NCBI GenBank assembly: GCA_032718475.1
Contig: JAUCBJ010008990.1
Location: 1-55,323, forward strand
Direction of reading: 5' to 3'
Source of the DNA: Nemertoderma westbladi
Taxonomy: Eukaryota > Animalia > Xenacoelomorpha
DNA length: 55,323 bases
Below the pieces are notes generated by a model. The model was given only the letters and a program-made list of their open reading frames with translations. It did not search any database and was not told where the DNA came from. This document shows, one piece after another, positions 14,448 through 43,151 of the stretch; the first letter of the stretch is position 1, and every line of letters starts with the position of its first letter. Position numbers and translations under genes: made by a program.

Positions 14448-16350
14448 TATAGAATTATATTCTCATAAATGCCGTGGATTTTCAAAATTTTATTTTGTTG
14501 GAATTAACTTGCTATAAAGATTACATTAAGTCCTCATTTGCATTTACTATATCTATTTGTATAACATTTGTTTAAGTGGTTCAGTAGCTCAGTCGGTTAT
14601 GCGTTAGAAAATCGTGTAGTAGGTGTCGAGTTCGAATCCTAGCAAGTGTGAATTATTTTTTGTGCTAAGTTTCAACTCATTTGAATTGACTGCTACGATT
14701 TAATTGTATCTGCTTAAGGTAGATTAACCAATGCGATTGCAGTTATTAGATAGCAACCAATGTCGTGCAAGATACGTGTTTGCTGGACCAATGATTATCT
14801 TTAAAAACCTAGTAGAACTCATAGAACAATCTAGATTTATCTAGATTGTTGGCAGCACAAATTTGCTATAAAAGGTGCGATTTTGTTCATTAGTTATTAG
14901 ATATTATTAGATAATAACCAATTTAGATAGCGACATTATTTCTTACACACTTAGTATAACCTTAATCTTCTTGTTACATTTATTGTATATTAGTTATTGT
15001 TTATTTGTAATAAAGTTAGAAAGTATTTGTTACATCTGCTTTTACTATGTTTCACCACGGTGAACACCACTGAAAGACAGATGGCAAGCTAGACATCGGA
15101 TCGCGGCAATAGACGGGAATATCGGAGGAATTTAGAAAGGAGACAACCCGCAATACCCATTCTTAGTTATTAGCCCATCGCCTGAAAGGTTAGACAGCGT
15201 TCGATGCCTCGTTACCTAAGCGTAAGACCTAAGATCGAAGGTAGAGGTACTGACACGCTGTGCGCTAAAAATTACATTTAGGGACTGTACTGTCTTAATT
15301 CAGAAAAACCCGCAGTTGACCTTCACATTCCTACGGGAGGAGATCAGGCAGAGAGATACTAGTACACAGATAGGACACAGGCACACCAGTACAAGGCATA
15401 CACATTAGTAGGGTGCAGCAAACTGTACGCCTAACTCATTTGCTAAGTATAGGTGCGTCGGTGGCCCGTTTGTAGTACAACGGTGTCCATTTGCATTAGA
15501 TCTTGTAGGCCAGGAAGGGTTACTGTATTTTTACCTGAATTGAGATTGTACCATTCAGGCGGTAGGGCAGTTTACTGCTAGGCGCATATAAATTGAGGCT
15601 ATTAGGGATACTAACATCTACCGTGTCCCCGCCGACATTCTGATAGGAAGTTACCGTGCCCACCTAGGCAACCAAAATTCTAGATAGGACGCCAGGCTAG
15701 CTATTTTGTAACTGTATGCCTACTGTTGTAAACTAACACATTTCTTCTTAGTATTAGGGACCTGGTAAATTAAATTGCCGAATTCTGGGCGTAGTATTAA
15801 CCTTATGCCTGAATTTGAGTCCTGGAAATACACAAAAGGGGAAGGAGCCTTATCATTCGTGAGTATTGGACCTACAAGCTACAAAATTAGAATATTTGTA
15901 AAATGTACACCGGACCCAGTAATTATATATGTGAAGGATCTAAAACTGATTTTGACTGTTAGAATCAAGACACACGCGCGTTAGGAATTATTTACACCTC
16001 AAAATATATAAAATAATTTTTGTCCGTACTGCACTTTGCCCCCTAGTTAGACACCTAGCTAGCGCCTCTATTTCTCACCCACATATAAATCACACCGCGG
16101 CAAAGTATACGAGCGCCCTTAGTCCGTCAGTGAGTCAGCCCGATTTTAGGATTCGCTGCGCGGGATTTTGTTTTATCGAAGTTTGTCCGTTCGTAGACTG
16201 TTTTCTGCCTCACCGGTTATAAGAGACCAATACTGCAATAGATTTGCTTACTTAGAGTTTACTGTTTTGGTGAGAAGGTCGGATTACGTTTTGATTCACA
16301 GACTTTACAGTAAGATATTGCAGGGTACTTTGTTACTGTCTCTTCGAATA
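14448..16350 (+). repeat. 5' LTR (1903 bp)
   Basis: Direct repeat of 30791-32692, roughly 98-99% identical by eye; starts TATAGAA, ends TTCGAATA. Confidence 0.95.
14578..14661 (+). promoter_or_regulatory. tRNA-like Pol III cassette (A box, B box, T-run) in the 5' LTR
   Basis: TAGCTCAGTCGG (A box) and GAGTTCGAATCC (B box) at tRNA-like spacing, then TTTTTT; acceptor and anticodon stems do not pair well. Confidence 0.65.
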
Positions 16351-17178
16351 GTAGGAATGTGGTATTATTTAACATATTTCCTAAAATAGTAGGAATGTGT
16401 TTTACTGAACTACGGTTCAGTTTTTGTATTTTGAGGTAAAATTTTGTATTTGATTAGCTAAGTGCTAATATTTGAAATAAAATTTTAATTTGAACCGCGT
16501 GTAAAATAATTGGAATCGAATACCGGTGTTTAAAAAGGGTTTAAATACCATATTGTACCGGTACAAAATTTTTCGTAAAAGTAAAACCTAACTCTTTTGT
16601 TTTTCAGGATTCAGAACTCATTTCTAGACTGTAACGAGAGCAAGACCGTGTTTAGCAAGTTTGGGAGATAGATAACTCAACAACTTTGGTTGGGAAAATC
16701 GCACTTCGTCCGCAACGCTGGAAACGGAAAGGTTCACGTCCAGTTTGTATCTGGGAATCTGTTTTCTGGAGAATTATTGGAGGGGGTGAGTTTGAAAAGT
16801 TGCATAAATCAGTTAGGCATTACCGTACTAGTTAAAATTATTGTGGGTTCCACTGTCTCAAGTATTTATGCATTCCGTACGATTTCTTTGTTTATTGCTG
16901 AACTAGTCCGTTAATTATTTGTGTTTAATTTACCCTTTGATAACGTATATCGTTATCCGATTTTATTTGTTATAAAATTGGCCGCCAGGCTAATTATATT
17001 ATATACTTACTCCGTGACATTTATTTGTTGTAAAATTGGCCGCTAGGCTAATTTTATCCATTTACTATAAAATCGGCCGGTAGGCTAATTTTATATGACT
17101 GTAATTAATACCGTTTAGATACAAATACGGTAAGTTTGATACTTTGACACTCACTTTACTTGACTTACAACCACCGAA

Positions 17179-18864
17179 ATGAGTGACAAACAAGACTATA
17201 CGAAGAATACACCTACTGACTATGACTCATATGACGCGGATAAGTCAGTAGCGGAAGAACCACAGGGGAAGACTCGTGAGCCTACCGAACCTACACCATG
17301 CACGTCACCAGTACATCCAACGGGAGTACCGGATGCCGTAGTACGAGGCGACGGCAGGACTGAGGATTTTCTAACGGTCCCGCAACCTAGACACAGAGAA
17401 ACGGACATGGTAAGTTCAGTAGGAAGCCAGGAGAGCATTGTTAGAAGCGTCGGAGGATACATGGCGCATATCACCAGGAGCATTGGAGAAGGCCAACGCA
17501 TATTAGACGAGTTGACCGCTCCGATGTCCCGGTTCGAGTTCTACACCCTACAGGTTAGAGTACAGAGTAAAGTACATAAGTCCGTAGATAACCTAATCGG
17601 TCTACAAGATCTAGCTAGACAGAGACAGGATATGGACACTCAGCTTAGAATCCTCGAGAAATTAATAATCGCCAGGGAGAAACTAATTCAGTTTAAGACA
17701 ACCGTTAGACAGATACAACAGGAACAAGCGGACCAGTTGCTAGGTGAGTCGGTTTCTGACGAGTTATTACAGCCCGAGGAAGAACAGGAATTGTACAGAC
17801 TGGACGGACAATTGAAACATCTGACAGATCACTTACGTATGTGCGGCGAAGCCGTCGGAGATTTGGAAACCGTGCCGGAAGATACGAGGGAAACTTCACC
17901 CGTACAAATCGAACTGGCACCGGGAATACTGAATCAATCATTGGTGAGTATTCGCAGCGAAATTGGCGAGGTAAGTCTGGTAACGTCAGAAATTTCTCGA
18001 CAGCAACAACAGTACTACAGACAACAACGAGAAATTGAGGAACAAACTCAATTGTTAACGGTACAAGCGGCAGTAGAGGAAGAGAAACTACGCGTCGCAA
18101 ATGTTGCGAGAATCTCTCATTTGCAAGAAGCAGCCGAACTGGAAGCAGCTGAGATGGAAAGGTTAGAGCTAGAAATAGCACGGCGAACAGTGGCAGCTGA
18201 GTTAGCGCAACAAGCGGCAGCAGCTGAGTTGGAACGACAAGCGGCAGCAGCTGAGTTCGAACGACAAGCGGCGGCAGCTGAGTTAGCGCAACGAGCAGCA
18301 ACAGCTGATTTGGAGCGACGAGCAGCAGAATTGGAAGAACACAAGCGAGTTTCGGAAGCGAGAGCCGAGTTGAAAAAACGACAGATAAAGGCTCAATCAG
18401 CTATACGACTAGCGGAGTTCGAAGCACAACAACAACAGACGGAACAACGCAAGAAGGAAGTTAAACTTCATTTCGAACTCGAAAAGAAGGCGAGGGAATT
18501 AGCCAACGCCAAGGAAGATCTGGATCTTCAAGCCCGCGATCGATCGATGAGATCTCGAGACGGACACGTTCTAGACCGGATAGAGGTAAGACATCGTCAA
18601 ATTCAGGAACGAATGAAGGAAGGAAGCGTAGGAGCACCTGAGCGAGAACGGGAATTGGTTAAAGACTTATGTCAACGATTTCCTCAAGTAACTCCGATGT
18701 TCGCACCAATTACGAATAAAGGACCTGTTTCGATTGCTGGTAGTAGCAGTATATCTCCTATACACGATGCGACGGAATACAGGTATGTTATTCCGGACAA
18801 GTTTGTAACGCCAAGAGCAATGTCATCGCCTATTCCAAAGGTCAAGGTAAGTAACCGCCAATAA
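17179..18864 (+). CDS. BEL gag N-terminal region: long coiled coil with AAAAELERQ-type repeats
   Basis: 561-aa ORF at the start of the internal region; E/Q/R/A-rich; out of frame with the next ORF. Confidence 0.7.
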   Translation: MSDKQDYTKNTPTDYDSYDADKSVAEEPQGKTREPTEPTPCTSPVHPTGVPDAVVRGDGRTEDFLTVPQPRHRETDMVSSVGSQESIVRSVGGYMAHITRSIGEGQRILDELTAPMSRFEFYTLQVRVQSKVHKSVDNLIGLQDLARQRQDMDTQLRILEKLIIAREKLIQFKTTVRQIQQEQADQLLGESVSDELLQPEEEQELYRLDGQLKHLTDHLRMCGEAVGDLETVPEDTRETSPVQIELAPGILNQSLVSIRSEIGEVSLVTSEISRQQQQYYRQQREIEEQTQLLTVQAAVEEEKLRVANVARISHLQEAAELEAAEMERLELEIARRTVAAELAQQAAAAELERQAAAAEFERQAAAAELAQRAATADLERRAAELEEHKRVSEARAELKKRQIKAQSAIRLAEFEAQQQQTEQRKKEVKLHFELEKKARELANAKEDLDLQARDRSMRSRDGHVLDRIEVRHRQIQERMKEGSVGAPERERELVKDLCQRFPQVTPMFAPITNKGPVSIAGSSSISPIHDATEYRYVIPDKFVTPRAMSSPIPKVKVSNRQ

Positions 18865-18899
18865 CGGATCGTAGTAATTTATTAGTCGGACCTACATTA

Positions 18900-20021
18900 A
18901 TGACGACAAAACAGCTGAGTCAACCTTCGACACCTAAACCTGTGATACACTACGCAAACCCAATCGTATTCAGGCCTTCAAGGCCGTTAGACTCAAACGC
19001 CAACACGCGACCACAAATTCAGTTTACATCGCAATCTACGACTTCGAGGAAGACTTGTGAGCCTACCGAGCAACGGAGACCAGTAGACACGCGACCGTTT
19101 AACCAGTTTACATCGCAATCTACGACTTCGAGGAAGACTTGCGAGCCTACCGAACAACGGAAACCAGTAGACGATGTTTCTAAACGGAATGTTAGAATTC
19201 GGACAACCCAACGGACGCGAGCACGTCGGCCACCGTATCCAGGTGATAGTAGTACTTCGAGCGAATCGGATTACCCGGAACGCGAGGTGTTTAGAACAGG
19301 AGCGGCCGATGAATGCAAACGCGAGCGTTCAACTAATTCCTTTATAGATAATCCTCCACAAAATACACCAACACAGAAAGCGTTACAACCAACGGACGCG
19401 ATCAGTACACAACAATTCGCCGATATAATGCGACCAGTTGTTAACAAGTTGGCCCAGATCGAGGAACGCTTAGAGGAAGTTCAAACTGATAGTTCGAGAA
19501 ACACGGAATTCGAACATACTAGACACCCGAAGCATCCACAAAGGACGGTGCTTTCAGGGAATGTAGAGTATGAGAAAAGACGTCCTGGACAGGGAAAAAC
19601 AAACTCTATTGCTACCCAGGGACGCGAAACTTTGAATGTTGCAGAAGAGATAGCTAAATTCGCAGCCAGACAAGGATTACCGGCGCAGCAACCACCAAAG
19701 TTCTCAGGAAACTCAAAACATTGGCATACCTTCGTGGATTACATCGAATCTCAAATTGCGGCATGCGCTTTTACATCGAGGGAAAAGTTTAACTACCTGC
19801 TTCAAACGCTGACGGGAGAACCGAAACGTCTAGCAGTGACTTTCGTCGGTGTACCAGACGCCTTCGAATTAGCATACGATCGCTTAACTTCCATTTATGG
19901 AGGTACGGTAAGTATGGCCAAGTCAGTAATAGAGGAACTCTGTAAAGGGGGGGCCATTACGAAACCCGTGGACTTACTGAAATTAGCTGATGAAATTAAA
20001 AACGCCATTACGACACTATGA
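18900..20021 (+). CDS. BEL gag capsid-like region (DUF1759-like), ending at an in-frame TGA
   Basis: PPKFSGNSKHWHTF...EKFNYLLQTLTGEP...AYDRLTSIYG; same frame as ORF 20154..25754. Confidence 0.8.
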   Translation: MTTKQLSQPSTPKPVIHYANPIVFRPSRPLDSNANTRPQIQFTSQSTTSRKTCEPTEQRRPVDTRPFNQFTSQSTTSRKTCEPTEQRKPVDDVSKRNVRIRTTQRTRARRPPYPGDSSTSSESDYPEREVFRTGAADECKRERSTNSFIDNPPQNTPTQKALQPTDAISTQQFADIMRPVVNKLAQIEERLEEVQTDSSRNTEFEHTRHPKHPQRTVLSGNVEYEKRRPGQGKTNSIATQGRETLNVAEEIAKFAARQGLPAQQPPKFSGNSKHWHTFVDYIESQIAACAFTSREKFNYLLQTLTGEPKRLAVTFVGVPDAFELAYDRLTSIYGGTVSMAKSVIEELCKGGAITKPVDLLKLADEIKNAITTL

Positions 20022-20153
20022 TCAATTGGACAACTTGACTACGCAAACACTCCTACAGTCCTATTAAAAATAATAGGGAGACTACACCATCGACTTCGTA
20101 GGGAGTGGAGAAAGATCGAGTACCAGCGAGAAGAAACAGGTGGATTTTTAAGA

Positions 20154-23100
20154 TTGGAAGATGTGTACCTATTAATATCTAGGGAGGCAGTAGTAGAGAC
20201 TCGTTCGAACTACACGGATCAACACATTATAGCCGAAGGTATAACTTTGCCATCGACCAACCGACAAAAACCACAGACGACATCTACAAGGATGGTCACC
20301 TACGCTACACCGACGGAAACCCGACAATTTTCTGACGGTTATAACGTGTCCGCACCCATTGGAATCAAACAGACTAGGCAGCAACTAAATGCCGACTTCA
20401 GCTGTTGTCAATACTGCGAGCGGATAGGTAAGCGACACACTAGTCACAAGTTAAGGGGATGTCGACTATTTCGTGAGTTAAACTCAGAAGAACGAAGACT
20501 ACAGATACGATCATTGGATTCTTGTTGGAGGTGTACGCAACACGGACATGTCCGAAAGGATTGCACAAATACGGACACCTGTCCTTCCTGTGGACGCAAT
20601 CATGACGGTTTGCTCCACACCGATAGTCATACACCGACGAAACGCTTCACCAGGGAACACCCAGAAGCAGCAGCGAAGTGCAACACTGCGTACAAGACGC
20701 GAGAGTCAAAGACAACACCAACCTTTGTGACGCATATTCGGGATTGTTTCCCAGAACAATCCGGGTCTTTAGATGAAGAGTCAGAAGACGACGACGCTTA
20801 TTTCAACACTGGGGACGAACAACCATCGATTGCGCTTCTGACGCCTGATCAACTAAAGGGATTTAGCGTAATTCCCGTTAAGATTACGGGCACAAAAGGG
20901 AGCAAGCGGATCTACGCTATTTTAGATTCAGCCTCATCTCACAGCTATGTGGACGAGAAGGTAGCTGACGTCGTCACAGATCTTCAACAAGGTAAGCACG
21001 TCAGTTATACCGTAAGTAGTATGCATGGACAACGTACAATACCAGTGACAAGAGTTAAATTGAACTTAGACACTCTTCTTCCGAAATCGCAACATAGCGA
21101 AAAGGAGAGGTCTTTGTTACCCTTTAAGGATTTAACCTTTGCGGCAACTAAGGACTTTAGTAACCTACTGGGTCCAGTGCCAGAACAATCCTTAGAGGAC
21201 CGTAAGTATTTTAGACACCTTGGTGTACCTGAATGTCCTGTTAATTATAGGTCAGTAGCAATGCTGATCGGGACAGACCAATTCAACTTACATCAAGTGT
21301 GGGAAACCAGACCATCGGTAGTCGTAGCAGGAAACGCATACGCCTGCAGAACGCCGATAGGGTGGTATACTCGAGCGCCTGTGCGCACACTAGATATAAG
21401 TGACGAGGAAGATGATGTGCAAAGTACATGTAGTTTATTAACTACAACTTCGACTCATTCTTTTTCAAACGACATTGACTATACTACACGCCAAAATTCG
21501 ACAAAACACGACAAAGTGACAAGTACGACATGTGTGGCAAGTACAATAAGTCAAAGGGAGCAGAAACCACTTTACAAAGAGGTAAGTTTAGAGATTGGGA
21601 AGGAGACGCATCAGGCAGAGGATCCATCAACGATAGATGATAATGCCGGAAGGCTTGCGAGTCTACCTCAACCAATAACCTTATCAACACCTGTCGATGT
21701 CGACACATTAAGGAATTGTCAAGTGGAACAAGCTGCACTGGACAAAGAATTAACAGAGAAAACTATCAAGTGGTTGGAACAAGACACAGCCGAACCTGGT
21801 AGTTACGAACCATGCATGTCGGAACAAGAAAAACAATCCTTAAAGATCATGGAAGATACTATCCATCAGACGAAAGACGGACATTATGAGGTAGGGATGC
21901 TATGGCGTAACCAACGTCCTAAACTTATAAATAATTATCCGCTAGCCTTAAGACGTTTAAACTCAATACGACAACGTTTATTAAAGGACGAGAAAGCCCA
22001 TCTGCAGTATAATACTCAGATGGAGACGTATTTGACAAAAGGGTACGCTATCAGAATGACAAACCCAGAGATTGTGACAGACCAGACATACTATTTGCCA
22101 CATCACTACGTGAGACACCCTGACAAACCAGATAAGGTACGTGTAGTAAATGACTGCGCGGCTCTGTTTGAGGGAATGTCTCTCAATACGGAGTTGATGG
22201 ATGGACCAAACATGAATAATTATCTCATGGGGGTGATTATGCGCTTCCGTCAACGCCAAGTAGCATTTACTTGCGACGTCGAAGCCATGTTTCACCAGGT
22301 GCGAGCGTTAGAGCGAGACAGAGACAGTTTGAGGTTCCTCTGGTACCTGGATGGAGACTTAAGTCAACCACCGGCGACTTACCAAATGCAAGTTCGCGTA
22401 TTCGGTGCCAGAGACAGCCCAAATTGCACTATGTACGCCCTAAAGCAGACCGCTAGGGATCAGAAACATAAGTATGACCCAGAGGTAATCCAAGTAGTAG
22501 AACGAGACTTTTACGTTGACGATGGATTACAAAGTTGCGACACAGTAGAACGTGCCATTACAGTAGCACATCAATTACGGGACTGTTTAGCAGGCGGAGG
22601 TTTTAACCTCACCAAGTTTGCTTCGAACAGTACCGAATTAGTAAATTCATTCAAAACGACTGAACGTGGGGGTGGTGACATTGACTTGGAATTCGAACCA
22701 CTACCGACGACAAAGGTGTTGGGACTATTTTGGGACCCGAACACAGACAACTTTCGAGTGAAGGTAAGACTGGACGCTCAAGGAGATTCTCTGACAAAGA
22801 GGTCTTGCTTGTCAAAACTAAGTAGACTGTTCGATCCATTAGGTTTTATCAGCCCAATAATACTGCAAGCAAGAATATACATGCGCAGTATTTGGAAAGA
22901 TGGACTGACATGGGACGAACCGATCTCATCAGAACAAGTAGACTTATGGAAAACTTGGGAGGCGCAATTATCTTCGCTAGAGGATTATTCCATACCCCGG
23001 GTGTACTTTCCATTACAGACGACATTTCCTGACAACTTAGAATTACATTGTTTTTCCGACGCCAGTGACAACGGCTTTGGAGTGACAGCGTATTTGCGCA

Positions 23101-25754
23101 GACAAGTAGACTCAGACGAGTTTGATGTTTCGCTCATTACTTCTAAGGCTAAGACCATGCCTACTAAGTACATGACGACACCGCGTGCTGAGCTACAAGC
23201 AGCAACTCTGTCAACCACCATTGCAAACCTTATACAGACGGAACTACAGTCAAGTTTACAGATATTTTATTGGACTGAAGCGACGTTAGTTTTATTTTAT
23301 ATAAACAACGACACACTTGAATTTAAGACATTTGTAGCTAATCGTCGTGCAGAAATACTAGACCGTTCAATAAAAGACGATTGGCGACATTGTCCCGGAC
23401 CACAAAACCCAGCTGATATTGCGTCACGAGTAATGAAGCCTGAGGAGTTCTGTAAACCGGAGAACAAGAAATTCTGGCAACATGGACCACAATTCTTACA
23501 AAGAGCAACACAACATTGGCCGCCACTATACGATAACAAGTCTAACACTATCCCTAAGGACGCCGAAATTAAAAAGCCAAAGAAAGGGAAAGCAAAGAAA
23601 AAGACGACGGCGAAACTCAAGAAAAAACCAAAGGCGAAATGGAAAAATATAACTTACAAAGTTAAGACAGGAAGACTTGCGAGCCTTTCTACACCAGACG
23701 TATCGCCAGACGGTAAACCAGACACGTTACCAGACGGTCAACCAGACACGTTAGACGGTCAACCAGACATTTTGCCAGACATGTCACTAGACGTTTCGCT
23801 GGATTTTCCGCGAAACATTTTACCAGACATTTTACAAGATGTTCTACCGGACACTAGTAACATACTAACACATAGTAAAGCCGCAGTTTCCCTATTGGAG
23901 CGGCCTTCTATTGACAAAATACCAAATTTGACACTCTTGAGTAACCATAAGCACAGTGAAACCTCATGTATTACAGATGTGGGTAGTACCTACGCAAATG
24001 TAAATACAGGTGTTACTTTACGCTCAAGAGACATACCAACCTTACAACCTATGGTGAAACCTGGGATCGACACACAAAGTACTGACAATCAAGGTAAGAA
24101 GACGAAGAAGGACAAATTACTCGTAGACCCGGACAGATCAACAGTCAACAAGGGAATACCTACCGGCGGACCCGTGGGCCCATCTAGTAAAACAAAACCT
24201 TCAAAATTCATCATTGACTTACCTGATGACGTCATAATTACTTACGTCGACCGTATTGTAAATCTGACAGATTCTTGGACAAATGCGTGCCGAAAATTAG
24301 CGTGGATTGTACGTTTTGTACAATACGTTAAAGGCAAACGCGACTTTACACGTCGACTCACATTGACTGAAATTGACAGATGTGAAATTAAATTAATTCA
24401 CCATTACCAATTGCGATATTTCGCACGCGAATTCACATCCATAAGTCAAGGTCAACCAATCAAGTCGTCACCAATATTGAGTTGGAGTCCGATAATTTAT
24501 AATGGCTTAATTTGTCATAAATCTCGGCTTCAAAACATCGACTTTAATACTGATTTTAGGTACCCAATAATAATACCACAACATCACGAATTACAACGTG
24601 CAATGATACTGGACGCACATTTACATCTGAAACACGCTGGAAGACACCACTGTCTTTCCTACTTACGAACAAGATTTGTATTAATTAGACCCAGTAAAGC
24701 GCTAAGTTCAGTGACGCGCATGTGTATTATTTGTAAAAAGGTACATTCTAGAATAAGTACCAAAGAAATGAGTGAACTTCCACAAGCAAGACTACAGGCA
24801 TTCAGACCACCTTTCACAGAGACTGGAATTGACTGCTTTGGTCCCATACATACGAAACGTGGACGTATACTAGTAAAACGCTGGGGACAGATTTTCACAT
24901 GCATGTCCAGTAGGGCAGTTCATATTGAACGTGTGATGGATCTTTCTACCAACGCTTTTATACTAGCATTGCGGCGATTTATCGCTAGACGCGGACTAGT
25001 AAAATGCTTGTACTCAGACCAAGGTACAAACTTTGTTGGTGCTCGAAATGAAATTGCTAGAGCCTTTAAGAAATTAGATCATGATCAAATCTCAAACGAA
25101 CTACGTCCTTACAAGATTGTTTGGAGGTTTAATCCTCCAGATAGTCCATGGAGAGGCGGAGTCTGGGAGAGATTGATTAGATCTATAAAAACAGCCATGG
25201 CGAAAGTAATTCCAGTAAACCACATCTTGACAGACGACCAACTGACCACATTGTTTGTTGAAATCGAGGCAATACTAAATACTAGACCAATAGTATTAGT
25301 ACCCGATGACAAACAATCCCAGTTTGCTTTAACACCTGCACACCTGCTAATGCAGGCACCGACTTCATTGATGCCTATTTCTATTCCAATAGAAGGCGAT
25401 AGCTACGGTAGAAAAGCGTGGAAAATCACGCAACTACTGGCTAACAAATTCTGGGAAATATGGCAAAATCATTATTTACCCTCTATTTCTGCCAGAACTA
25501 CTTGGTACAACAATACTCGCGCTTTAAGAGCGGGAGATCACGTGCTGTTAGCAGAAGTGAATTTAAAAAGACGCTTCTGGATAACAGGTGTTATTTTAGA
25601 CGCACATCCATCTATGGATGGAGTGACAAGAACTGTGACGGTACGGACAATTGATGGTCGTACAGTAGACAGACCGACCCAACGTCTCGTACTTCTTGAA
25701 GAGACTCGAAACAAGTCTGGAGATTACAAGTCTCCAACTAATGTTAGTAAATAG
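20154..25754 (+). CDS. BEL/Pao gag-pol polyprotein (Zn knuckles, protease, RT, RNase H, integrase)
   Basis: CWRCTQHGHVRKDC and CPSCGRNHDGLLH; AILDSASSHSYV; YYLPHH, DVEAMFHQV, FYVDDGL; LHCFSDAS, TTPRAELQAA, NPADIASR; H..HAG..CIIC, GIDCFGP, YSDQGTNF, GGVWERLI. Confidence 0.95.
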   Translation: MEDVYLLISREAVVETRSNYTDQHIIAEGITLPSTNRQKPQTTSTRMVTYATPTETRQFSDGYNVSAPIGIKQTRQQLNADFSCCQYCERIGKRHTSHKLRGCRLFRELNSEERRLQIRSLDSCWRCTQHGHVRKDCTNTDTCPSCGRNHDGLLHTDSHTPTKRFTREHPEAAAKCNTAYKTRESKTTPTFVTHIRDCFPEQSGSLDEESEDDDAYFNTGDEQPSIALLTPDQLKGFSVIPVKITGTKGSKRIYAILDSASSHSYVDEKVADVVTDLQQGKHVSYTVSSMHGQRTIPVTRVKLNLDTLLPKSQHSEKERSLLPFKDLTFAATKDFSNLLGPVPEQSLEDRKYFRHLGVPECPVNYRSVAMLIGTDQFNLHQVWETRPSVVVAGNAYACRTPIGWYTRAPVRTLDISDEEDDVQSTCSLLTTTSTHSFSNDIDYTTRQNSTKHDKVTSTTCVASTISQREQKPLYKEVSLEIGKETHQAEDPSTIDDNAGRLASLPQPITLSTPVDVDTLRNCQVEQAALDKELTEKTIKWLEQDTAEPGSYEPCMSEQEKQSLKIMEDTIHQTKDGHYEVGMLWRNQRPKLINNYPLALRRLNSIRQRLLKDEKAHLQYNTQMETYLTKGYAIRMTNPEIVTDQTYYLPHHYVRHPDKPDKVRVVNDCAALFEGMSLNTELMDGPNMNNYLMGVIMRFRQRQVAFTCDVEAMFHQVRALERDRDSLRFLWYLDGDLSQPPATYQMQVRVFGARDSPNCTMYALKQTARDQKHKYDPEVIQVVERDFYVDDGLQSCDTVERAITVAHQLRDCLAGGGFNLTKFASNSTELVNSFKTTERGGGDIDLEFEPLPTTKVLGLFWDPNTDNFRVKVRLDAQGDSLTKRSCLSKLSRLFDPLGFISPIILQARIYMRSIWKDGLTWDEPISSEQVDLWKTWEAQLSSLEDYSIPRVYFPLQTTFPDNLELHCFSDASDNGFGVTAYLRRQVDSDEFDVSLITSKAKTMPTKYMTTPRAELQAATLSTTIANLIQTELQSSLQIFYWTEATLVLFYINNDTLEFKTFVANRRAEILDRSIKDDWRHCPGPQNPADIASRVMKPEEFCKPENKKFWQHGPQFLQRATQHWPPLYDNKSNTIPKDAEIKKPKKGKAKKKTTAKLKKKPKAKWKNITYKVKTGRLASLSTPDVSPDGKPDTLPDGQPDTLDGQPDILPDMSLDVSLDFPRNILPDILQDVLPDTSNILTHSKAAVSLLERPSIDKIPNLTLLSNHKHSETSCITDVGSTYANVNTGVTLRSRDIPTLQPMVKPGIDTQSTDNQGKKTKKDKLLVDPDRSTVNKGIPTGGPVGPSSKTKPSKFIIDLPDDVIITYVDRIVNLTDSWTNACRKLAWIVRFVQYVKGKRDFTRRLTLTEIDRCEIKLIHHYQLRYFAREFTSISQGQPIKSSPILSWSPIIYNGLICHKSRLQNIDFNTDFRYPIIIPQHHELQRAMILDAHLHLKHAGRHHCLSYLRTRFVLIRPSKALSSVTRMCIICKKVHSRISTKEMSELPQARLQAFRPPFTETGIDCFGPIHTKRGRILVKRWGQIFTCMSSRAVHIERVMDLSTNAFILALRRFIARRGLVKCLYSDQGTNFVGARNEIARAFKKLDHDQISNELRPYKIVWRFNPPDSPWRGGVWERLIRSIKTAMAKVIPVNHILTDDQLTTLFVEIEAILNTRPIVLVPDDKQSQFALTPAHLLMQAPTSLMPISIPIEGDSYGRKAWKITQLLANKFWEIWQNHYLPSISARTTWYNNTRALRAGDHVLLAEVNLKRRFWITGVILDAHPSMDGVTRTVTVRTIDGRTVDRPTQRLVLLEETRNKSGDYKSPTNVSK

Positions 25755-26419
25755 TGAGGAGTTTACAAATAGATTTCCACGTACCTGTACACTGTAGTAA
25801 AGACAGCGATAGAATTCCATTGTCTTTATATGTGAACATTGAGGGTAGTACCCTTATGTGTCACATAGGAGCGGGATTTGTAGGTATAAGAAATGGAATT
25901 CTACTTGGAACTCACAATATTGAGACATTTTCGAAATTTTAGACAATCCATTTGGATTTGAAAAATTTTAAAATTTTCTCCAGTGAATATATTTCAGGGT
26001 ACAGTCGGGTGGAACTTAAAATTAGAGAAACAAGAGAATGGAAGACTCGCGAGCCTTTCTTAAAATTTAATTAAATTTTACACGGTCTTGTTTCAAAAGT
26101 TACGTCAACAAATAGACTTCCCTATATTTATTACTAACTCTTGACTGCTTATTTTCTGATAATAGTTTGGGATCAAAAAGTGAGTATTTTAGACTCACAG
26201 CCAGTTTAGCCCAAATTCGTTTTTTATTTCGGCAAAAAAAAATTTTAGATAAGAAACAGTGTGTCATTAAAGAAACCCTAGATCTTAGGCTATGGGTAGG
26301 AGGTTAGAGCGTTGTCGAGCCAAAAGGGCAGACGAAAACTCTCACATCTCCTCACAACTAACAATAAACTCTGTTGTATTCCCTCTAGTAGTAATGATTA
26401 TGTAACCATACTTCCAATA

Positions 26420-29400
26420 ATGGCGAAAGGGATACATGGAGAGCCGAGATGAGATGATATCCAAGAGGAAGCAGCAGCTCCATTCAAAAGATTCGGTGCA
26501 AAGGATTACACCATATTCGGAATAAAGGATTTATCAGAAAGTACAGCAAAACTCGCAAAGACTAAATATTACTCGACGGTATTAAAGAGAAGGCAAAATG
26601 CGTTAAGTGAAAGGATCGAAAGTTTACGTAAAACCTTCAACGAACTTTATCCGTACGATGCTTTATGTGATATGGGAGATATCAGTGAAGACCCCGATAC
26701 CGAAATTAGTCGTTTGTATCATACCATGCAATACCTGAAGGCACATGAACGTATGCCTGCGGTACGCGATGAATTCGATGGAATGCATCTTTACAGACGA
26801 ACTCGAGGAGACAATAGAGAAACGAAGGAAGCCTTTTCAGTTTACAAACTTTATTATCAATGTGGTGCTTGTATGCGCGAACAACAAAAGGCGATTCCGA
26901 TGCATTTGAATAAGGAAAATCCCGAACCGATATTGGCGAGGTGTTCGAACCATCAACAACTACGCTACCAGGAAGGAGGGTATCCTTTATCTAATCCATA
27001 TCATTCATTTGCTATGTGTGGACCAAAGGCGGGAGAAATTGTCGTTTGTCCACCTAAGATTGTTGAACCCGATGCATTTGAACTTACGCTGGAAGAGGTG
27101 ACTCAGTCAACCCGCGAAAAGAAAGAAGCTCTTAGCCTATACAGAGCCTATAAGGCTTTCGAGAAAGGTGATATGGAAAAATGGGGCGGAAGACTCGCGA
27201 GCCTACCTTACCATTGGACGTTATTCAGAGACTACAGTTTGCATCCCTGGAAAGGACAAGAGAAATGCAACCGCATAGTACTTCGACTACGACACTCAAT
27301 TTCCCTATTAGTGTACCAGTTCGACAAGACACGACGTATGAAATACCTATTGTGGATCATCCGGAAATCATTTCAAACTTAGAGTTTCTTCCTGCAGTTG
27401 TTCTAAGTGATATGGTTAAGATATATGATTTACGTAGACATATTACGCAAAAGGTCGTGCATAATGTTCCGCCTCATATTCAAGACTTTAGGGAACTGGA
27501 TAGAGCTGGCGCTGATATAGCTCCGAGTAACTTAAGAGGATATCTGACCAGAACAATTCGTTTGTGGATCGGAACAGGAACCTTTGAGTCGGATACAGAC
27601 ATCGCTACGAACTGGCAAGGTAAAATCATTCGCTTCGAGGACGAGAAGGACATAGAGAAGATTTGGCAACCTTCGGAAGAATTATTGGACGAATGGAACA
27701 GAACATTTAGATCGTTTCAGGAAAATGGTTACATGTTTTATGACAACGAGGGCGGCAGCCATCAACAGAGTCTGACTTCCAAGACTATACAAATTAGAGC
27801 GGCAGACGGAGTTCTGCACGTTTTCAGTAGACAAAGGAGCGACAAGCGAATGCCGATACCTCCAGGAAATACCAAGCGGCACCATCTCATCACTAATATA
27901 ATAAAGAAGATGGACCAAGCCTGCGATATTGATGCTAGGATGTTACCGAAGATGGTCAGAAATATCATTTTAGATAAAACCGTTGTAAAGATTGGATCAG
28001 GAGTTAGAGAGGATTTAATTAGCGACTTTGCCAGCATGTCGGACAGTGACGACCGATTACCGACACCTTACGTCGACACCCGACCTCTTATACTGTGGTC
28101 CATAGAACAAGGATACTTCCGTGAGTATGATACTCAGAAGACCGGAACTGGATACATTTCCTACCTGATGTTTAATTGGGATTACAAGGAAAGTAAAAGA
28201 ACAAAGTATATCTAAACGTATGGAGAAGGTGATACTCCAGATAAAAACGAGTTTGAATCACAGCTCAAATGGAGAGGATGCGTGTATTGGGCTATTACTT
28301 CACCTCCAAGGGCGGTACTACAATATTATTTAGCGATAGAGTCATCGGTGAATGTTTGCTTGATCGCCGACATTGTGTCTCGGACTCTAAAACGACATCC
28401 ACTTTGCCTCGGAGAAGATCATACATTCTACGCGGAAGGGAGAATTCATACTGACGTGTTTAGACGATTTCTCGAACCCTTCTACAATTCCGACGCTCAG
28501 TGCAACGCCTTTACTCGAGCAGGATTTAGTATATTTCGAGACGTGTATCTTCGCTGTGCGGGATCTCTTATCGAAAGACCATCTATGTTTACAATATTAC
28601 CTTATGAAGGAGAACGTATCGTGGAGGTTATCGACGAATCACGGCAGACGCGCGCGCCTATCGGTCACTTAGGTGATGATTCCGACTTAACGACGACCAT
28701 CGATGATCCTCTAGAGGAACTTCTTGAGATTGAAAGGAACCTCCCGAAGAAATCTCAGATGGAGATTCGTCAACTTGAAGCAACAGATGCTGTAGTTTGC
28801 ATACAACCTTCTGAAACATACCAACCTATTGATCCAGACGATTATGACTATAGTGTGGGAGGAAGCGCTCGACCCATTGGAGATCTCATATATGAGTGAG
28901 TGTGGTACCCTGCCAATACGATGTGTGGTAAATGTGGTGTCGCTGGACATCATTCGACGAAATGCAGTGGAAACACATTACTACGACTCAACTGATTTGT
29001 GGATGGTGTGGAGATCAAGGGTCCCATACATTTTATACTTGCTGGAGATTTATGGCTCAATGCACATATTGCAATATAAAGGGACATTGAGCATCTGAAT
29101 GCCAACTGCGAGACATACCATACGAACACGAATCTGTAAAATTAGTGCGAAAACTGTTTGATGATTGGGAAGATTTGGCTGACGAACATGTATCGGCGCA
29201 AAGAAGACGGTTCCCAATGAGGGCACATCTTGGATTTTGGGCGGTAAACCCTCAAACTATGATGTCGGAAGGATATATCTCCGCTATGCCACAATATGAC
29301 GAACTAATCGAGGTAGTCGATATTTTGCCTCATGATAGTGGATTTAGAGTCGTGCGCGAATATTTGCTACAGATTCATCCCGATAATAAGAATACATGGA

Positions 29401-29855
29401 ACTTCCAGAAAGTCATTAATCGTATCACATATGGTGAATTCGATCGATTCCGAACAGAAAAGCGGAACAAGGGAGCTTGGTTAACCGTCGCATGGGCGTA
29501 CCGAGCCGCATTCTATTACAATCGTATACGAGCGAGCGTATTCGAGGAAGAGGAGATCCTAGAGGCGACCAACATACCAGCTACTCCGGTTGCGCCGTCT
29601 GCACGCCACCCTCGAGAGGACGGACAGAATAGGATTATAAGGGTTCAGAAAGTGAGCCAACAACTAAAGAAAACTATAAATGTTGAAGAACGAAGGGGAT
29701 ATGAACCGACTATTCGAGTTACTCGGGATATGGTATCACTTCCCAGAGAACCGCAAGGAGGATTAGGCCGCTTCCCGCGCGTTCCCAGACGTTTTGCCAA
29801 CAGTGGATACAACCAGTCGGTCACGAGGAGTCGGACGAGGATTTGGGATTACTAG
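26420..29855 (+). pseudogene. Disrupted accessory ORF of the BEL element: DEDDy-type 3'-5' exonuclease-like domain plus three zinc knuckles
   Basis: FYDNEG (ExoI-like, D 27742, E 27748), TIQIRA, LPKMVRNIILDKTVVKIGSGVRED (ExoII-like), YVDTRPL, W..PP...QYYLAIE (ExoIII-like); knuckles CGKCGVAGHHSTKC 28924-28965, CGWCGDQGSHTFYTC 28998-29042, CTYCNIKGH*ASEC 29061-29102; several in-frame stops and two frameshifts. Confidence 0.72.
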
Positions 29856-30103
29856 AAGGCGAGCTTGTGAGGAAATGGTCGTACCGTCTCCCAACGTCCA
29901 AGGTAAACCAGTGACTCGCCCCATAAGCCCTGTAGTACGAGCCAAGTCGCCTGTACGCAGTTTTCGAGGACGCGGCCGTGCTCAATCCACAAAACGATAA
30001 ATAAAGTGTTATACTTGAAAGGACTAATTATTCCGAACTCGTAAAACTTTTGTAAAGTGGGAAGGAAAGAGTGGACGGAAGACTCGTGAGCCTTTCTTAT
30101 GAT

Positions 30104-30330
30104 TAAATTTATGCAATTTATATTGTTCTAAATTTATGCAATTTATATTGTTCTAAATTTATGCAATTTATATTGTTCTAAGTTTATGCAATTTATATTG
30201 TTCTAAATTTATGTATTTTGTATTGTTCCAATTTTATGAAATTTAGAAAGTTTTATATTTAGAAGGAATTTTATATTTAGAAGGAATTTATATTTAGAAA
30301 GATTTACATTTAGAAAGTGTTATATTTGTA
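30104..30330 (+). repeat. AT-rich tandem repeats in the BEL 3' UTR (25-bp x ~5.5, then ~19-bp units)
   Basis: TAAATTTATGCAATTTATATTGTTC at 30104, 30129, 30154, 30179, 30204; then TTTTATATTTAGAAGGAAT-like units. Confidence 0.85.
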
Positions 30331-30790
30331 GTCATTCCAAACTTTCGCAATTTATTGTTTCGAATATTATGCAATTTATATTTTATAAAGAAGCAGTACT
30401 TGTATTCGCAGTAAATAGAAGGCAAGAGCAGACGGAAGACTTGTGAGCCTTTCTTGTGATTTCATTTGAAATTATTCCGAACTTATGCAATTTGTTTTAT
30501 ATTTAAGTAGCATTTGTACTTGTGATTGTTTGAGTTTATGCAATATTTGAGATGCAATAGATTTATATTGGTGAATTTAATTTAGATTTATATTGTACTT
30601 ACTTAATAAAGCCTTAAATACGTAAAGTTTGAATTTGTAATTATTTTGTATCGAATTATTATGTAAAGGTATTATTGTTAAGATTTAATTTGTAAATATG
30701 TAAGTACGTCCCAAGTATTCCATAATTTGATTTAGTATTGGTGAAAACCGTATATTTTATGCACGATAATATCCTGTTTTCATGGAGCGG

Positions 30791-32692
30791 TATAGAATTA
30801 TATTATCATAAATGCAGTGGATTTTCAAAATTTTATTTTGTTCGAATTAACTTGCTATAAAGATTACATTAAGTCCTCATTTGCATTTACTATATCTATT
30901 TGTATAACATTGTTTAAGTGGTTCAGTAGCTCAGTCGGTTATGCATTAGAAAATCGTTTAGTAGGTGTCGAGTTCGAATCCTAGCAAGTGTGAATTATTT
31001 TTTGTGCTAAGTTTCAACTCATTTGAATTGACCGCTACGATTTAATTGTATCTGCTTAAGGTAGATTAACCAATGCGATTGCAGTTATTAGATAGCAACC
31101 AATGTCGTGCAAGATACGTGTTTGCTGGACCAATGATTATATTTAAAAACCTAGTAGAACTCATAGAACAATCTAGATTTATCTAGATTGTTAGCAGCAC
31201 AAATTTGCTATAAAAGGTGCGATTTTGTTCATTAGTTATTAGATATTATTAGATAGTAACCAATTTAGATAGCGACATTATTTCTTACACACTTAGTATA
31301 ACCTTAATCTTCTTGTTACATTTATTGTATATTAGTTATTGTTTATTTGTAATAAAGTTAGAAAGTATTTGTTACATCTGCTTTTACTATGTTTCACCAT
31401 GGTGAACACCGCTGAAAGACAGATGGCAGGCTAGACATCGGATCGCGGCAATAGACGGGAATATCGGAGGAATGTAGAAAGGAGACAACCCGCAATACCC
31501 ATTCTTAGTTATTCGCCCATCGCCTGAAAGGTTAGACAGCGTTCGATGCCTCGTTACCTAAGCGTAAGACCTAAGATCGAAGGTAGAGGTACTGACACGC
31601 TGTGCGCTAAAAATTACATTTAGGGACTGTACTGTCTTAATTCAGAAAAACCCGCAGTAGACCTTCACATTCCTACGGGAGGAGATCAGGCAGAGAGATA
31701 CTAGTACACAGATAGGACACAGGCACACCAGTACAAGGCATACACATTAGTAGAGTGCAGCAAACTGTACGCCTAACTCATTTGCTAAGTATAGGTGCGT
31801 CGGTGGCCCGTTTGTAGTACAACGGTGTCCATTTGCATTAGAACTTGTAGGCCAGGAAGGGTTACTGTGTTTTTACCTGAATTGAGATTGTACCGTTCAG
31901 GCGGTAGGGCAGTTTACTGCTAGGCGCATATAAATTGAGGCTATTAGGGATACTAACATCTACCGTGTCCCCGCCGACATTCTGATAGGAAGTTGCCGTG
32001 CCCACCTAGGCAACCAAAATTATAGATAGGACGCCAGGCTAGCTATTTTGTAACTGTACGCCTACTGTAGTAAACTAACACATTTCTTCTTAGTATTAGG
32101 GACCTGGTAAATTAAATTGCCGAATTCTGGGCGTAGTATTAACCTTATGCCTGAATTTGAGTCCTGGAAATACACAAAAGGGGAAGGAGCCTTATAATTC
32201 GTGAGTATTGGACCTACAAGCTACAAAATTAGAATATTTGTAAAATGTACACCGGACCCAGTAATTATATATGTGAAGGATCTAAAACTGATTTTGACTG
32301 TTAGAATCAAGACACACGCGCGTTAGGAATTATTTACACCTCAAAATATATAAAATAATTTTTGTCCGTACTGCACTTTGCCCGCTAGTTAGACACCTAG
32401 CTAGCGCCTCTATCTCTCACCCACATATAAATCACACCGCGGCAAAGTATACGAGCGCCCTTAGTCCGTCAGTGAGTCAGCCCGATTTTAGGATTCGCTG
32501 CGCGGGATTTTGTTTTATCGAAGTTTGTCCGTTCGTAGACTGTTTTCTGCCTCACCGGTTATAAGAGACCGATACTGCAATAGATTTGCTTACTTAGAGT
32601 TTACTGTTTTGGTGAGAAGGTCGGATTACGTTTTGATTCACAGACTTTACAGTAAGATATTGCAGGGTACTTTGTTACTGTCTCTTCGAATA
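30791..32692 (+). repeat. 3' LTR (1902 bp)
   Basis: Direct repeat of 14448-16350; preceded by a short purine-rich GGAGCGG (PPT-like) and followed by TSD TCTTT. Confidence 0.95.
30920..31003 (+). promoter_or_regulatory. tRNA-like Pol III cassette in the 3' LTR
   Basis: Same A box, B box and T-run as 14578-14661. Confidence 0.65.
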
Positions 32693-34761: not shown

Positions 34762-37047
34762 TCACCAATCAACCCCATCAAACAGTCCGATGTAGTGGAA
34801 GGGTGTGTCCATGGTTCCCACCACCGACGCCGCGTTTCCCATGAGAATTGCCACCGCCAAGCGTTGCAGCAAAAACTGGTGCGACCGTTGCTCATGGGTC
34901 CGAGCATGAAGACGCGCCCCGACTTCCTGGAGGAAGCTGGCAGTCTCGGGTCCGGGTCGACCAAAGGTCTCAAAGGCCACGGGACTGAAGTAGCAGCGAC
35001 CACGCTCTACCAACTCGCTATACTTCCTAATCTTCACCCGCTCAGCCTCCTCAGCAGCACGGCCACCAGCGATGAGGGTCTGCTGGAGATGACTCGGGGC
35101 GAGGGGATCCGTTACGGTTGCGTCCCAGGCCAATGAGCGGCCGCGGTTCCAAGGCATCACTGTAACCCCGTCAACCCTCTTACCATCGCTCCGACAGAGA
35201 CCTGGGGGCTCAAGGATGGGGGACACCCCGCAGCTGACCAGCGCCCGCCTTACTATATCGTTCAACATAGCGTGGCGGGGATGCCGGCCAGCGCTCCTCT
35301 GGCAGCAGATACCATGGAGACCATCAGCAGCTACCAGGCTACCACAGCGACAGGTATGCGGCTCGACTACCTTACTTCCCAGCCGCATGGCAACGGCGAT
35401 GCGGAACTGGCTGTCATCCAGCTTCAGTCCCAACGACGAGATGGGTAGAGCACTGAGCCAGCATCCGGCAACTGGGTGGTCCAGGGAATTTAACCTAGCA
35501 AGGTCGACTGGGGATGCAACTAGACGCAGCGCTGCGAGGTTAGCCGAGTGGACTGGGGCCACCCACGCACTCTGAGCAGTCGTAGAGGGTAGAGTAGCGT
35601 CCGAAGGGAGGGAGGATATCCAGAACTCCCGGGCCAACTCGTTGGTTGGGCTCACCACCCCCACTGAGTGGAGCAGGCGGTCGGACAGAGAAGAACAGGC
35701 AGCCGCGGAAGCCAGGAAGGCGGATGGTGCGAGCTGCACTGCCGAACTCAGTCCGAGACCGCCCACCCGTGCGGGGAGGCAGGCCTGGTCCCAGGCTGGG
35801 TCGCTGATATTAGTGTTAGCGACTTCCTGCAGGGTACTTCGGAGGATATCGTCGTAGTTCTTAAGTGCTTCAGGGAATAGGAAGCACGGCGCTGTCCGGA
35901 GGAAATAGGTTAGCCGAGGTATGGCAAATGAATTCTTTAGGAGGAAGAAGCCGTGGTGGGCATCTAGTAGAGGTATGCGGCAGGCTAGGGTCGAGAGGTC
36001 CCCTATCTTTGATGCGAGGCAGGATGCTATAGCGGCATCACCAATGGGGGCACCCAGCATTGACAGCTGTTCAAGGGGTGGGTACTTGATACCAGGGCAG
36101 ACTGAGTTGAACTCCAACTGGATACGGGCGCGAGATTCCTCTGTCTCCGGCCCTAGGAAGAAAAGTTCACTCTTCCCAGGGTTTATCCTCAACCCGCACT
36201 TCCCCCCCTCAACAATCACTTCCCGCAGGTCCTGCAGAACCACATGGTAGTCATCCGCCAAGTTACCGTCATCAAGGTACCAGACATTAAAGCTGGACCG
36301 CCTAGCCTGGACGACGGGGTTTACGGTATCACCGAAGAAGGGCGGTCCGTCCGAGTCCCCCTGCTGCACTCCCTCGTCCGAGAGGAGAGTCTGGGATCCG
36401 TGGAGGAGGAAGGATGCCTCCCCGTAGGCCGCTAGAGTGTAGTTATACACGGAGGGGTGCTGGTCGTGGACGGTCTCCAACATGGTATCCCGGCGGATAG
36501 AATTAAAAGCGTTGCTGAAATCTATTTTCAGCAACACTGTCCCAGCCGGGTTCTCCCTCTCCGTCAACGCTCTCACAGCATGTTCTGCGGCTTCCGCTCC
36601 CAGTTTACAACCAATACCTACTTGCACCGACCCATAAGAATGGGTGCGATCCTCCCCCACCAGGCGCCCGGCAAACTTTGAACAGAGTCTCCGTAGAGCA
36701 ACTCCAACAGCGATAGGCCTGATGCCTCCTCCGGTCTTTGTGAACGCGAAGAGGTTCGCCCCGAAGAAGAGGGGACGGATGGCAACCGGCACATCCCCCG
36801 CAATAGTGACGTCCACGAAATGAGAGAGGGTGGAAAGCAGTCGCTCAGCAGCCCCGCCGTTCGTTGGGCTGACAACGTCTTTAAAGATTTGGGGACGCAC
36901 ACCATCTGGTCCTCCTGCACTACCGCAAGGGAAGGACGAAATCAACTTCCGCAGCACCGCGGGGGAGCATGGCTTCGCGGATGAGTTTACTGGCGGTGGG
37001 GGGTCTCTCCGGTCGACGGGCCTGATCGGGTGTTTATCCCGCAACAT
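34762..37047 (-). CDS. Reverse transcriptase + Zn motif + restriction-like endonuclease
   Basis: SAGGPDG, GIRPIAVG, KIDFSNAFNSI, GVQQGD, WYLDDG, GGLGL, CRC..H..C..RH, RVDGVT..PW..G..LAWDAT, E..KIRKY, PVAFETFG. Confidence 0.92.
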   Translation of the reverse strand: MLRDKHPIRPVDRRDPPPPVNSSAKPCSPAVLRKLISSFPCGSAGGPDGVRPQIFKDVVSPTNGGAAERLLSTLSHFVDVTIAGDVPVAIRPLFFGANLFAFTKTGGGIRPIAVGVALRRLCSKFAGRLVGEDRTHSYGSVQVGIGCKLGAEAAEHAVRALTERENPAGTVLLKIDFSNAFNSIRRDTMLETVHDQHPSVYNYTLAAYGEASFLLHGSQTLLSDEGVQQGDSDGPPFFGDTVNPVVQARRSSFNVWYLDDGNLADDYHVVLQDLREVIVEGGKCGLRINPGKSELFFLGPETEESRARIQLEFNSVCPGIKYPPLEQLSMLGAPIGDAAIASCLASKIGDLSTLACRIPLLDAHHGFFLLKNSFAIPRLTYFLRTAPCFLFPEALKNYDDILRSTLQEVANTNISDPAWDQACLPARVGGLGLSSAVQLAPSAFLASAAACSSLSDRLLHSVGVVSPTNELAREFWISSLPSDATLPSTTAQSAWVAPVHSANLAALRLVASPVDLARLNSLDHPVAGCWLSALPISSLGLKLDDSQFRIAVAMRLGSKVVEPHTCRCGSLVAADGLHGICCQRSAGRHPRHAMLNDIVRRALVSCGVSPILEPPGLCRSDGKRVDGVTVMPWNRGRSLAWDATVTDPLAPSHLQQTLIAGGRAAEEAERVKIRKYSELVERGRCYFSPVAFETFGRPGPETASFLQEVGARLHARTHEQRSHQFLLQRLAVAILMGNAASVVGTMDTPFHYIGLFDGVDW

Positions 37048-40700: not shown

Positions 40701-40830
40701 TTGGGGACACCCGACTAGGGGACACCCGACTAAGGGACACCCGACTTGGGGAGACCCGGCTAGGGGACATCCGACTTTGGGACACCCGACTAGGGGACAC
40801 CCGACTAGGGGACACCAAACTAGGGGAAAT
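37715..40830. repeat. ~3.1-kb GC-rich 15-bp minisatellite (GGGGACACYCGACYW) with higher-order variants
   Basis: About two hundred 15-mers; minus strand reads (RVSP[SG])n or (V[GE]CP[QL])n. Confidence 0.95.
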
Positions 40831-42422: not shown

Positions 42423-42468
42423 AGCGCTACTGATGAGGCCTGTTAGGCTGAAACGTACTTATAGCGCT
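42423..42468 (+). ncRNA. Type I hammerhead ribozyme, unit 1 (variant: G.U at the base of stem II, UUA site)
   Basis: AGCGCTA CTGATGA GGCCTGTTAGGCT GAAAC GTAC TTA TAGCGCT. Confidence 0.75.
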
Positions 42469-43105: not shown

Positions 43106-43151
43106 AGCGCTACTGATGAGGCCTGTTAGGCCGAAACGTACGTATAGCGCT
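43106..43151 (+). ncRNA. Type I hammerhead ribozyme, unit 3 (consensus)
   Basis: Core identical to unit 2; predicted cut after 43144. Confidence 0.93.

Follow-up and report, generated by a model that had tools for sequence, protein, structure and literature searches.

The Nemertoderma westbladi contig JAUCBJ010008990.1, analyzed here as a window of 55,323 nucleotides (nt) with all coordinates on the + strand, contains a full-length long terminal repeat (LTR) retrotransposon of 18.2 kb in which gag-pol is followed, in the position of env, by a third open reading frame (ORF3) with a putative exonuclease domain and three CCHC zinc knuckles (Table 1). ORF3 is enclosed by the single LTR pair of the element, which is 98.6% identical, is flanked by a 5-bp target duplication (TCTTT), and has the termini TAT...ATA at 14448, 16350, 30791, and 32692; TG...CA is not present there. 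The element is assigned from its sequence to BEL/Pao (Belpaoviridae), because gag-pol contains DUF1759 (E 2.7e-08), Peptidase_A17 (E 4.7e-42), and DUF5641 (E 5.1e-20), each above its Pfam cut-off. YVDD and integrase motifs are visible in the pol translation, with integrase last in the domain order, and gag-pol is damaged by a single frame change near 18860 and a single stop at 20019. The element is young and unusually large. A preliminary description of the region had placed it within a BEL/Pao element after pol, and the LTR pair, the target duplication, Peptidase_A17, and DUF5641 bear this out.

ORF3 starts with the ATG at 26420 and in this copy is interrupted by stops at 26450, 28213, 28897, and 29088 and by frame shifts at about 27220-27310, at 28973/4, and probably at about 29760-29770, whereas two frameshifts had been described. 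The element was compared with its relatives in four DNA runs (one organism, three studies; 138 to 3082 contigs per run over 25700-30200), which contain many diverged copies of the family. The shifts are private to this copy or its lineage, because contigs from other copies differ across all three places by exactly the remainder needed for a continuous reading frame. This holds for all four of four hand-picked records, a single contig at 27220-27310, a pair at 28973/4, and another single contig within 29592-29763. Among the differences listed there is also variation between copies within the first stop codon; the other three stops are not among them. The third shift leads into a frame rich in arginine and glycine (RG) that closes at TAA 29998-30000 and has an extra stop at 29764, adjoining the putative shift. 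Because the shift enters this frame and contig joints cluster at 29997-30001, the point where similarity to other copies breaks, ORF3 probably ends at this TAA and comprises about 1,190 codons. The preliminary description, which ended the gene at 29855 with some 1100 residues, probably had the last 30 or so codons in the wrong frame.

The N-terminal 390 codons of ORF3 received no family assignment in NCBIfam, PHROG, and protein searches. The three knuckles reported earlier are indeed present, at 28924-28965, 28998-29042, and 29061-29102, and zf-CCHC_3 covers them at an E of 0.035, under its cut-off. Peak hydropathy is 1.39 over 19 residues, and there are two N-glycosylation motifs in total. 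An identity as env was dismissed since there is no membrane segment at this hydropathy and no signal peptide or anchor was found, in agreement with the earlier view that the third gene is not env. We also dismissed a nested foreign insertion, as no inner LTR or duplication is listed and a 17-nt motif is common to ORF3, gag, pol, and the untranslated regions (UTRs).

Table 1. Features of the Nemertoderma westbladi BEL/Pao element and its third gene.
Feature	Coordinates	Strand	Remarks
5' LTR	14448..16350	+	1903 bp; ends TAT...ATA; TCTTT target duplication at flank
Candidate self-primer	15324..15334	+	11 nt within LTR, exact complement of 16351..16361; transcript would start there
Primer-binding position	16351..16361	+	no TGG start; pairs with 15324-15334
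Donor-like GTAAGT	17130..17135	+	49 nt upstream of gag ATG; 1 of 18 GTRAGT sites in element
gag-pol	17179..25754	+	DUF1759, knuckle, Peptidase_A17, Integrase_H2C2, DUF5641
17-nt motif GGAAGACTYGYGAGCCT	17267..30450	+	17267, 19048, 19132, 23670, 26040, 27188, 30077, 30434 (0-1 mismatch); 21648, 28643 (3 mismatches)
Acceptor (branch point, pyrimidine tract, AG)	26356..26388	+	32 nt upstream of ORF3 ATG
ORF3, env position	26420..30000	+	about 1,190 codons; 4 stops and 3 frame shifts in this copy; third shift and end probable
N-terminal region of ORF3	26420..27600	+	several cysteines; no family or homologue matched
Putative exonuclease domain, WRN/EXD-like, DnaQ-type	27700..28400	+	ExoI D27742/E27748, ExoII D28012, ExoIII Y28327/E28339; interrupted by stop 28213
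Acidic linker	28600..28896	+	24 D/E in 99 residues
Three CCHC knuckles	28924..29102	+	CX2CX4HX4C, CX2CX5HX4C, CX2CX4HX4C; shift 28973/4 and stop 29088 within
Probable helical domain, 150 residues	29112..29561	+	ESM Atlas: no family; AlphaFold pLDDT 40
Basic tail, R/G/S/P-rich	29767..30000	+	frame ending TAA 29998; other copies diverge just past 30000
3' LTR	30791..32692	+	27 mismatches against 5' LTR over 1902 aligned bases

The motifs on which the preliminary description based an exonuclease all lie where it had put them: FYDNEG at 27736-27753 (ExoI), KIGSGVRED at 27988-28014 (ExoII), YVDTRPL at 28069-28089, and QYYLAIE at 28321-28341 (ExoIII), the last with glutamate at the usual aspartate position. 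ExoI and ExoII are canonical, and the acidic set is D-E-D-E (D27742, E27748, D28012, E28339) together with Y28327. Because ExoIII has the form Y-x3-E and not the strict Y-x3-D, the domain is, as judged from its motifs, DEDDy-derived rather than a canonical DEDDy member. Catalysis, if retained, would proceed with glutamate in ExoIII.

Two unrelated methods place this domain near the WRN-like enzymes. In the ESM Atlas the unbroken frame 27601-28212 gave 30 matches, 25 of them in eukaryotic PF01612 clusters with scores of 0.93-0.94 and 175-178 of 256 features shared (recognition 2628); the PF01612 label is carried by 11-31% of members in the top three clusters. For the second method we built a WRN-like profile from 83 bacterial enzymes (80 loci and three Bacteroidota genes; seed against WRN, E 1e-17), a search from the bacterial seed enzyme having returned near-identical Acinetobacter proteins only, and scored the region by chaining eight profile blocks, with no gaps inside a block and no fixed loop length between blocks. 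The chain scored 26.6, compared with a mean of 0.3 (standard deviation 5.4, maximum 20.4) for shuffled sequences, none of 250 of which reached it, and -1.5 for the reversed sequence. The blocks YMFYDNE, SKTIQIR, VLHVFS, ExoII, the GTGYISYLMF helix, VYWA, and VLQYYLAIE were recovered in order, seven of the eight in the register given by the preliminary description, with the YVDT block misplaced. ExoI, ExoII, and two further blocks ranked first, the ExoI D-x-E among 304 positions and the ExoII K-x-G-x-G-x3-D block, at 20.5 bits, among 287; HMMER gives the same ExoII register. ExoII contributes most of the score. An earlier chain run without a gap penalty scored above 400 of 400 shuffles, yet misplaced ExoI and ExoIII. 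With the WRN-like profile HMMER ranked the region first among 1104 six-frame pieces of the window, and the single NCBIfam match in the domain, at E 0.089 over ExoI, was to the DnaQ enzyme DNA polymerase III epsilon. The WRN-like, DnaQ ancestry proposed earlier thus stands, and we regard it as highly probable.

The family keeps the exonuclease gene under purifying selection. Within the domain (27720-28350), 40 of the 76 differences among copies are listed, and 31 of these are synonymous and nine non-synonymous, 29 being at third codon positions; the expected synonymous share is 27%, and the ratio of non-synonymous to synonymous change (pN/pS) is about 0.11. None of the 40 falls in the six motif codons. 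Elsewhere in ORF3 the synonymous to non-synonymous counts are 9:7 in the N-terminal, 5:4 in the middle, and 4:4 in the C-terminal part, from 33 scored of the 40 differences listed (of 539), after dropping four that are non-coding, one in a stop codon, and two duplicates.

This copy of ORF3 has decayed ahead of gag-pol. Given the divergence of the LTRs, the time since insertion should have brought about 1.2 new stops to ORF3 and 2.7 to gag-pol, and four and one are seen (p 0.03); counting all breaks the numbers are seven and two (p 0.004), or six and two if the third shift is left out (p 0.01). In addition, all four runs and all three studies contain contig joints that connect 26562-26578 to 28475-28616 and so delete the nuclease together with the N-terminal part, the shorter sides of these joints being 26-50 letters. 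Median contig depths over the nuclease and knuckle parts are 16,662 versus 31,005 in run X1 and 290 versus 1,989 in run X4, although depth is not copy number and we draw no conclusion from it. ORF3 has decayed in a lineage that was still transposing and is not needed in cis; since the family nonetheless keeps it under selection, a product acting in trans would fit.

ORF3 is likely expressed from an env-style spliced mRNA. A separate message is suggested because the acceptor lies 32 nt before an ATG in good context, and the combination of branch point, pyrimidine tract, and AG occurs at only two sites in the element, 26388 and 16607 in the leader. The leader acceptor (16587-16607) is strong and could splice out the primer site. 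Another GTAAGT donor is located at 18847, right at the frame change in gag.

The 17-nt motif is found at eight sites with 0-1 mismatch and two with three, where 0.09 matches are expected, and is confined to the + strand of the element interior with none elsewhere in the window; three matches on the reverse strand fall at sites already counted, which are nearly palindromic. It spans gag, pol, ORF3, and non-coding DNA, and a protein-level origin was dismissed because it occurs in two reading phases as well as in non-coding DNA. All ten copies retain the six-pair stem of a short hairpin with a Y-G-Y-G loop, and in two of them both sides of a pair are changed. Because the loop variants are nine T and no A (p 0.004, or 0.03 with two local duplicates merged), the pattern points to a signal read as a single strand instead of to CpG decay. 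It may, weakly, represent a tag read by the ORF3 knuckles, and the Gag knuckles are as likely a reader.

The priming site is also unusual. At the position after the LTR, where a typical BEL/Pao element has an 18-nt site for tRNA-Arg or tRNA-Gly, there is no TGG start and instead an 11-nt match to the LTR, which 12 of 5000 simulated LTRs reached and whose duplex is valued at -15.6 kcal/mol. The candidate self-primer stretch recurs at 31666 in the 3' LTR, and the primer site is repeated about 38 nt downstream, its first copy being able to form a hairpin. Self-priming in Tf1 uses 11 nt, the same length as here (PMC7175516, in part; "in part" marks statements drawn from the accessible portion of a source). 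Elements of this type share with ours an 11-nt site that follows the LTR and can pair with a stretch inside it, and at this stretch the transcript would have its 5' end.

We tentatively favor, at somewhat less than an even chance, the interpretation that ORF3 is a trans-acting RNA-binding 3'-5' exoribonuclease that trims the ends of element RNA and weakens small-RNA silencing. An env-style spliced mRNA would yield the protein of this accessory gene, predicted to join a WRN/EXD-type DnaQ-fold domain to three CCHC knuckles and a basic tail, and the protein would act in trans. The knuckles and RG tail would bind RNA, as in the trypanosome enzyme TbRND, and it is by this likeness that RNA appears the probable substrate; the exonuclease would then trim the 3' ends of element-derived RNA, and the trimmed ends would weaken silencing of the element. 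An elaboration, which we consider improbable, is a tag-and-trim counter-defence in which the knuckles would read the YGYG-loop hairpins and the D-E-D-E exonuclease would cut the ends, sparing the transcripts from production of PIWI-interacting RNA (piRNA). If true, animals would have an equivalent of VANC anti-silencing that operates on RNA, with a product available in trans from which copies lacking the nuclease also profit.

Several observations weigh against an exoribonuclease that counters silencing. Shuffled proteins yield ESM Atlas scores of at least 0.9 in 4-10 cases per 100, the blocks of the chain were picked with the query in view, and the ExoIII block scores -1.2 bits and ranks sixth of 298. 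The HMMER score of the region is a mere 4.5 bits (E about 1). A Pfam scan of ORF3 did not place PF01612 among its matches, leaving the family below its hidden Markov model (HMM) cut-off, and PHROG profiles gave nothing for ORF3. A sequence search of the PDB returned no exonuclease, MAD2 appearing only at E 1.3; 1.84 billion protein representatives held no homologue at E 0.001; and among 5.8 billion proteins the exonuclease region drew 126 candidates, none at E 10, while the N-terminal part, compared with longer proteins, drew 2151 candidates and no homologue. BLASTP and hhalign against a six-sequence WRN-like alignment did not find the correct register, that of hhalign being wrong. The 36 remaining differences in the domain include one G-to-T place, so the ExoIII glutamate may not be family-wide. 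The motif hairpin is weak, at -0.4 to -4.9 kcal/mol with a pair probability of 0.1 or less, and the data at hand do not distinguish an anti-silencing role from one in replication. The Pfam and AlphaFold checks proposed in the preliminary description failed to support an exonuclease, single-sequence AlphaFold giving a predicted local distance difference test (pLDDT) score of 32 for the region and no usable model; a fold guided by an alignment of WRN-like sequences was dismissed as circular. Plasmid and phage collections contained no ORF3 homologue, viral contigs no locus with pol, and metagenomes neither ORF3 nor integrase. That every search judged by E value is negative and no usable structure model is available would be expected if the motif match were coincidental and ORF3 a real gene of another fold, which we consider very improbable given that two unrelated methods converge on PF01612/WRN-like proteins with the motifs ordered and in register.

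Two other explanations accept the domain and differ as to its use. The enzyme might be packaged and help replication, trimming the self-primer, strong-stop DNA, or the ends of complementary DNA (cDNA), or proofreading reverse transcription of the 18-kb genome. Some members of the WRN class are DNA exonucleases, the size of the element is roughly double the customary 4.2-10 kb (PMC8742986), a Tf1-like self-priming site is present, nidovirus ExoN accompanies genome growth (PMC7968707, in part), and 3'-end processing has been proposed for the rotifer and Dada domains (PMC5408684 and PMC3706591, both in part). However, ORF3 decayed ahead of gag-pol in the transposing lineage and nuclease-less variants exist, so that it is not needed in cis, and the Tf1 primer is made by RNase H alone (PMC7175516, in part); we consider such a role fairly unlikely. 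Alternatively, the change from aspartate to glutamate may have weakened or ended catalysis, leaving a protein that only binds RNA for transport, packaging, or mimicry of the piRNA pathway, like EXD1 or Maelstrom. The non-canonical ExoIII, insertions of about 30-40 residues that break up the domain, and the dispersed 17-nt motif as a candidate RNA tag would agree with this, and inactive DEDD derivatives work in piRNA biology (PMC5408684, in part). We nonetheless judge a pseudo-nuclease unlikely, because all four positions are still acidic, the tyrosine is kept, and the motif codons are untouched among the differences listed.

Other parts of the element and of the window have features of their own. 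Between RNase H and integrase, at about 23600-24300, pol has a long K-rich insert with PD repeats, and its RNase H motif is WTEA in place of the usual WTDS. The 3' UTR has 25-bp tandem repeats at 30079-30278, and within the LTR, at about 14576-14640 and 30918-30985, there is a tRNA-like A-box/B-box pattern; ARAGORN and Rfam returned no match for it. A fragmented non-LTR element lies at 8107-10339 (+; RVT_1 E 5.7e-32), and a reverse-transcriptase ORF at 34765-37074 (-; RVT_1 E 3.6e-10) is beside a GC-rich 15-bp tandem array (37718-41180) whose - strand has an open frame of 1014 codons. An ORF at 52753-54202 (-) with DUF3504 and phage-integrase domains is presumably Crypton-like. Three tandem arrays (341, 39, and 30 bp) and an inverted repeat resembling a miniature inverted-repeat transposable element (107-nt arms) occupy 42155-44368, 45361-46203, 50722-51491, and 48799-49448.

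The cellular proteins closest to the ORF3 domain are WRN, EXD2, mut-7, and the plant WRN-like enzymes (PF01612; PDB 2fbt, 6k17, 7jw2), with which it shares the ExoI DxE, the L..I..D..V.K.G.G...D block of ExoII, and the order helix-W-ExoIII, and whose eukaryotic clusters are its nearest in the ESM Atlas; it differs from them in the ExoIII glutamate, the large insertions, HMM scores below cut-off, and its carriage by a transposon. TbRND of Trypanosoma brucei (PDB 7c42) likewise places CCHC fingers in tandem after a DEDD exonuclease, and these fingers bind the RNA that the enzyme trims (PMC7797062, in part), although TbRND is a cellular protein of the RNase D type and has four fingers instead of three, and we intend an analogy of layout and claim no homology. 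For viruses, the arenavirus exonuclease suppresses innate signalling (PMC7968707, in part).

Belpaoviridae as defined by the International Committee on Taxonomy of Viruses are 4.2-10 kb long, have LTRs of 0.2-1.2 kb, and are primed by tRNA (PMC8742986). The present element shares their LTRs and the set and order of pol domains, and some members have a third, env-like gene (PMC8742986; PMC3118150, in part), but it differs in its size of 18.2 kb, LTRs of 1.9 kb, TA...TA ends, candidate self-primer, and an ORF3 that is not env. The preliminary description knew of no such architecture in BEL/Pao, and we found no printed precedent: titles and abstracts yielded no BEL/Pao exonuclease ORF in a search whose coverage stops short of Repbase and most subscription journals, and the word 'exonuclease' is absent from the accessible portion of the BEL/Pao survey of de la Chaux & Wagner (PMC3118150). 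New here are the env-like splice signals, the nuclease-skipping deletion variants, the ten-site 17-nt motif, and the Tf1-like self-priming site.

The Juno and Vesta lineages of rotifers are gypsy-type. In these bdelloid LTR retrotransposons, and also in Athena/Terminon elements, a DEDDy ORF3 carrying the DEED set has been described (PMC5408684, in part), with a DEDDy ORF reported for Terminons elsewhere as well (PMC6431247, in part). Juno and Vesta share with our element a DnaQ-type exonuclease gene of putative function after pol, in the place of env and without membrane segments. They are set apart by description: their host elements are not described as BEL/Pao, their acidic set is DEED and not the D-E-D-E found here, and the ORF3 reported here, of about 1,190 codons, contains three knuckles as well as two further domains without an assigned family. 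Dada DNA transposons of Laccaria and Ectocarpus also carry a DEDDy domain, but inside the DDE transposase, with all four DEDD residues, and not as a separate retroelement gene (PMC3706591, in part). The VANC proteins of Arabidopsis VANDAL elements similarly combine an accessory transposon protein with a short repeated sequence, although they bind non-coding DNA of a plant DNA transposon, while the motif described here is also coding, looks strand-specific, and is a candidate target (PMC5735166 and PMC10398659, both in part). These comparisons bear on the question of active counter-measures against small-RNA silencing in animal retrotransposons, and activity and target are directly testable in a family with numerous copies, selection that can be measured, variants naturally lacking the nuclease, and a candidate cis motif. 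Exonuclease ORF3s, previously described in rotifer elements only, would thereby extend to a second superfamily, with another nuclease subtype and with built-in RNA-binding modules.

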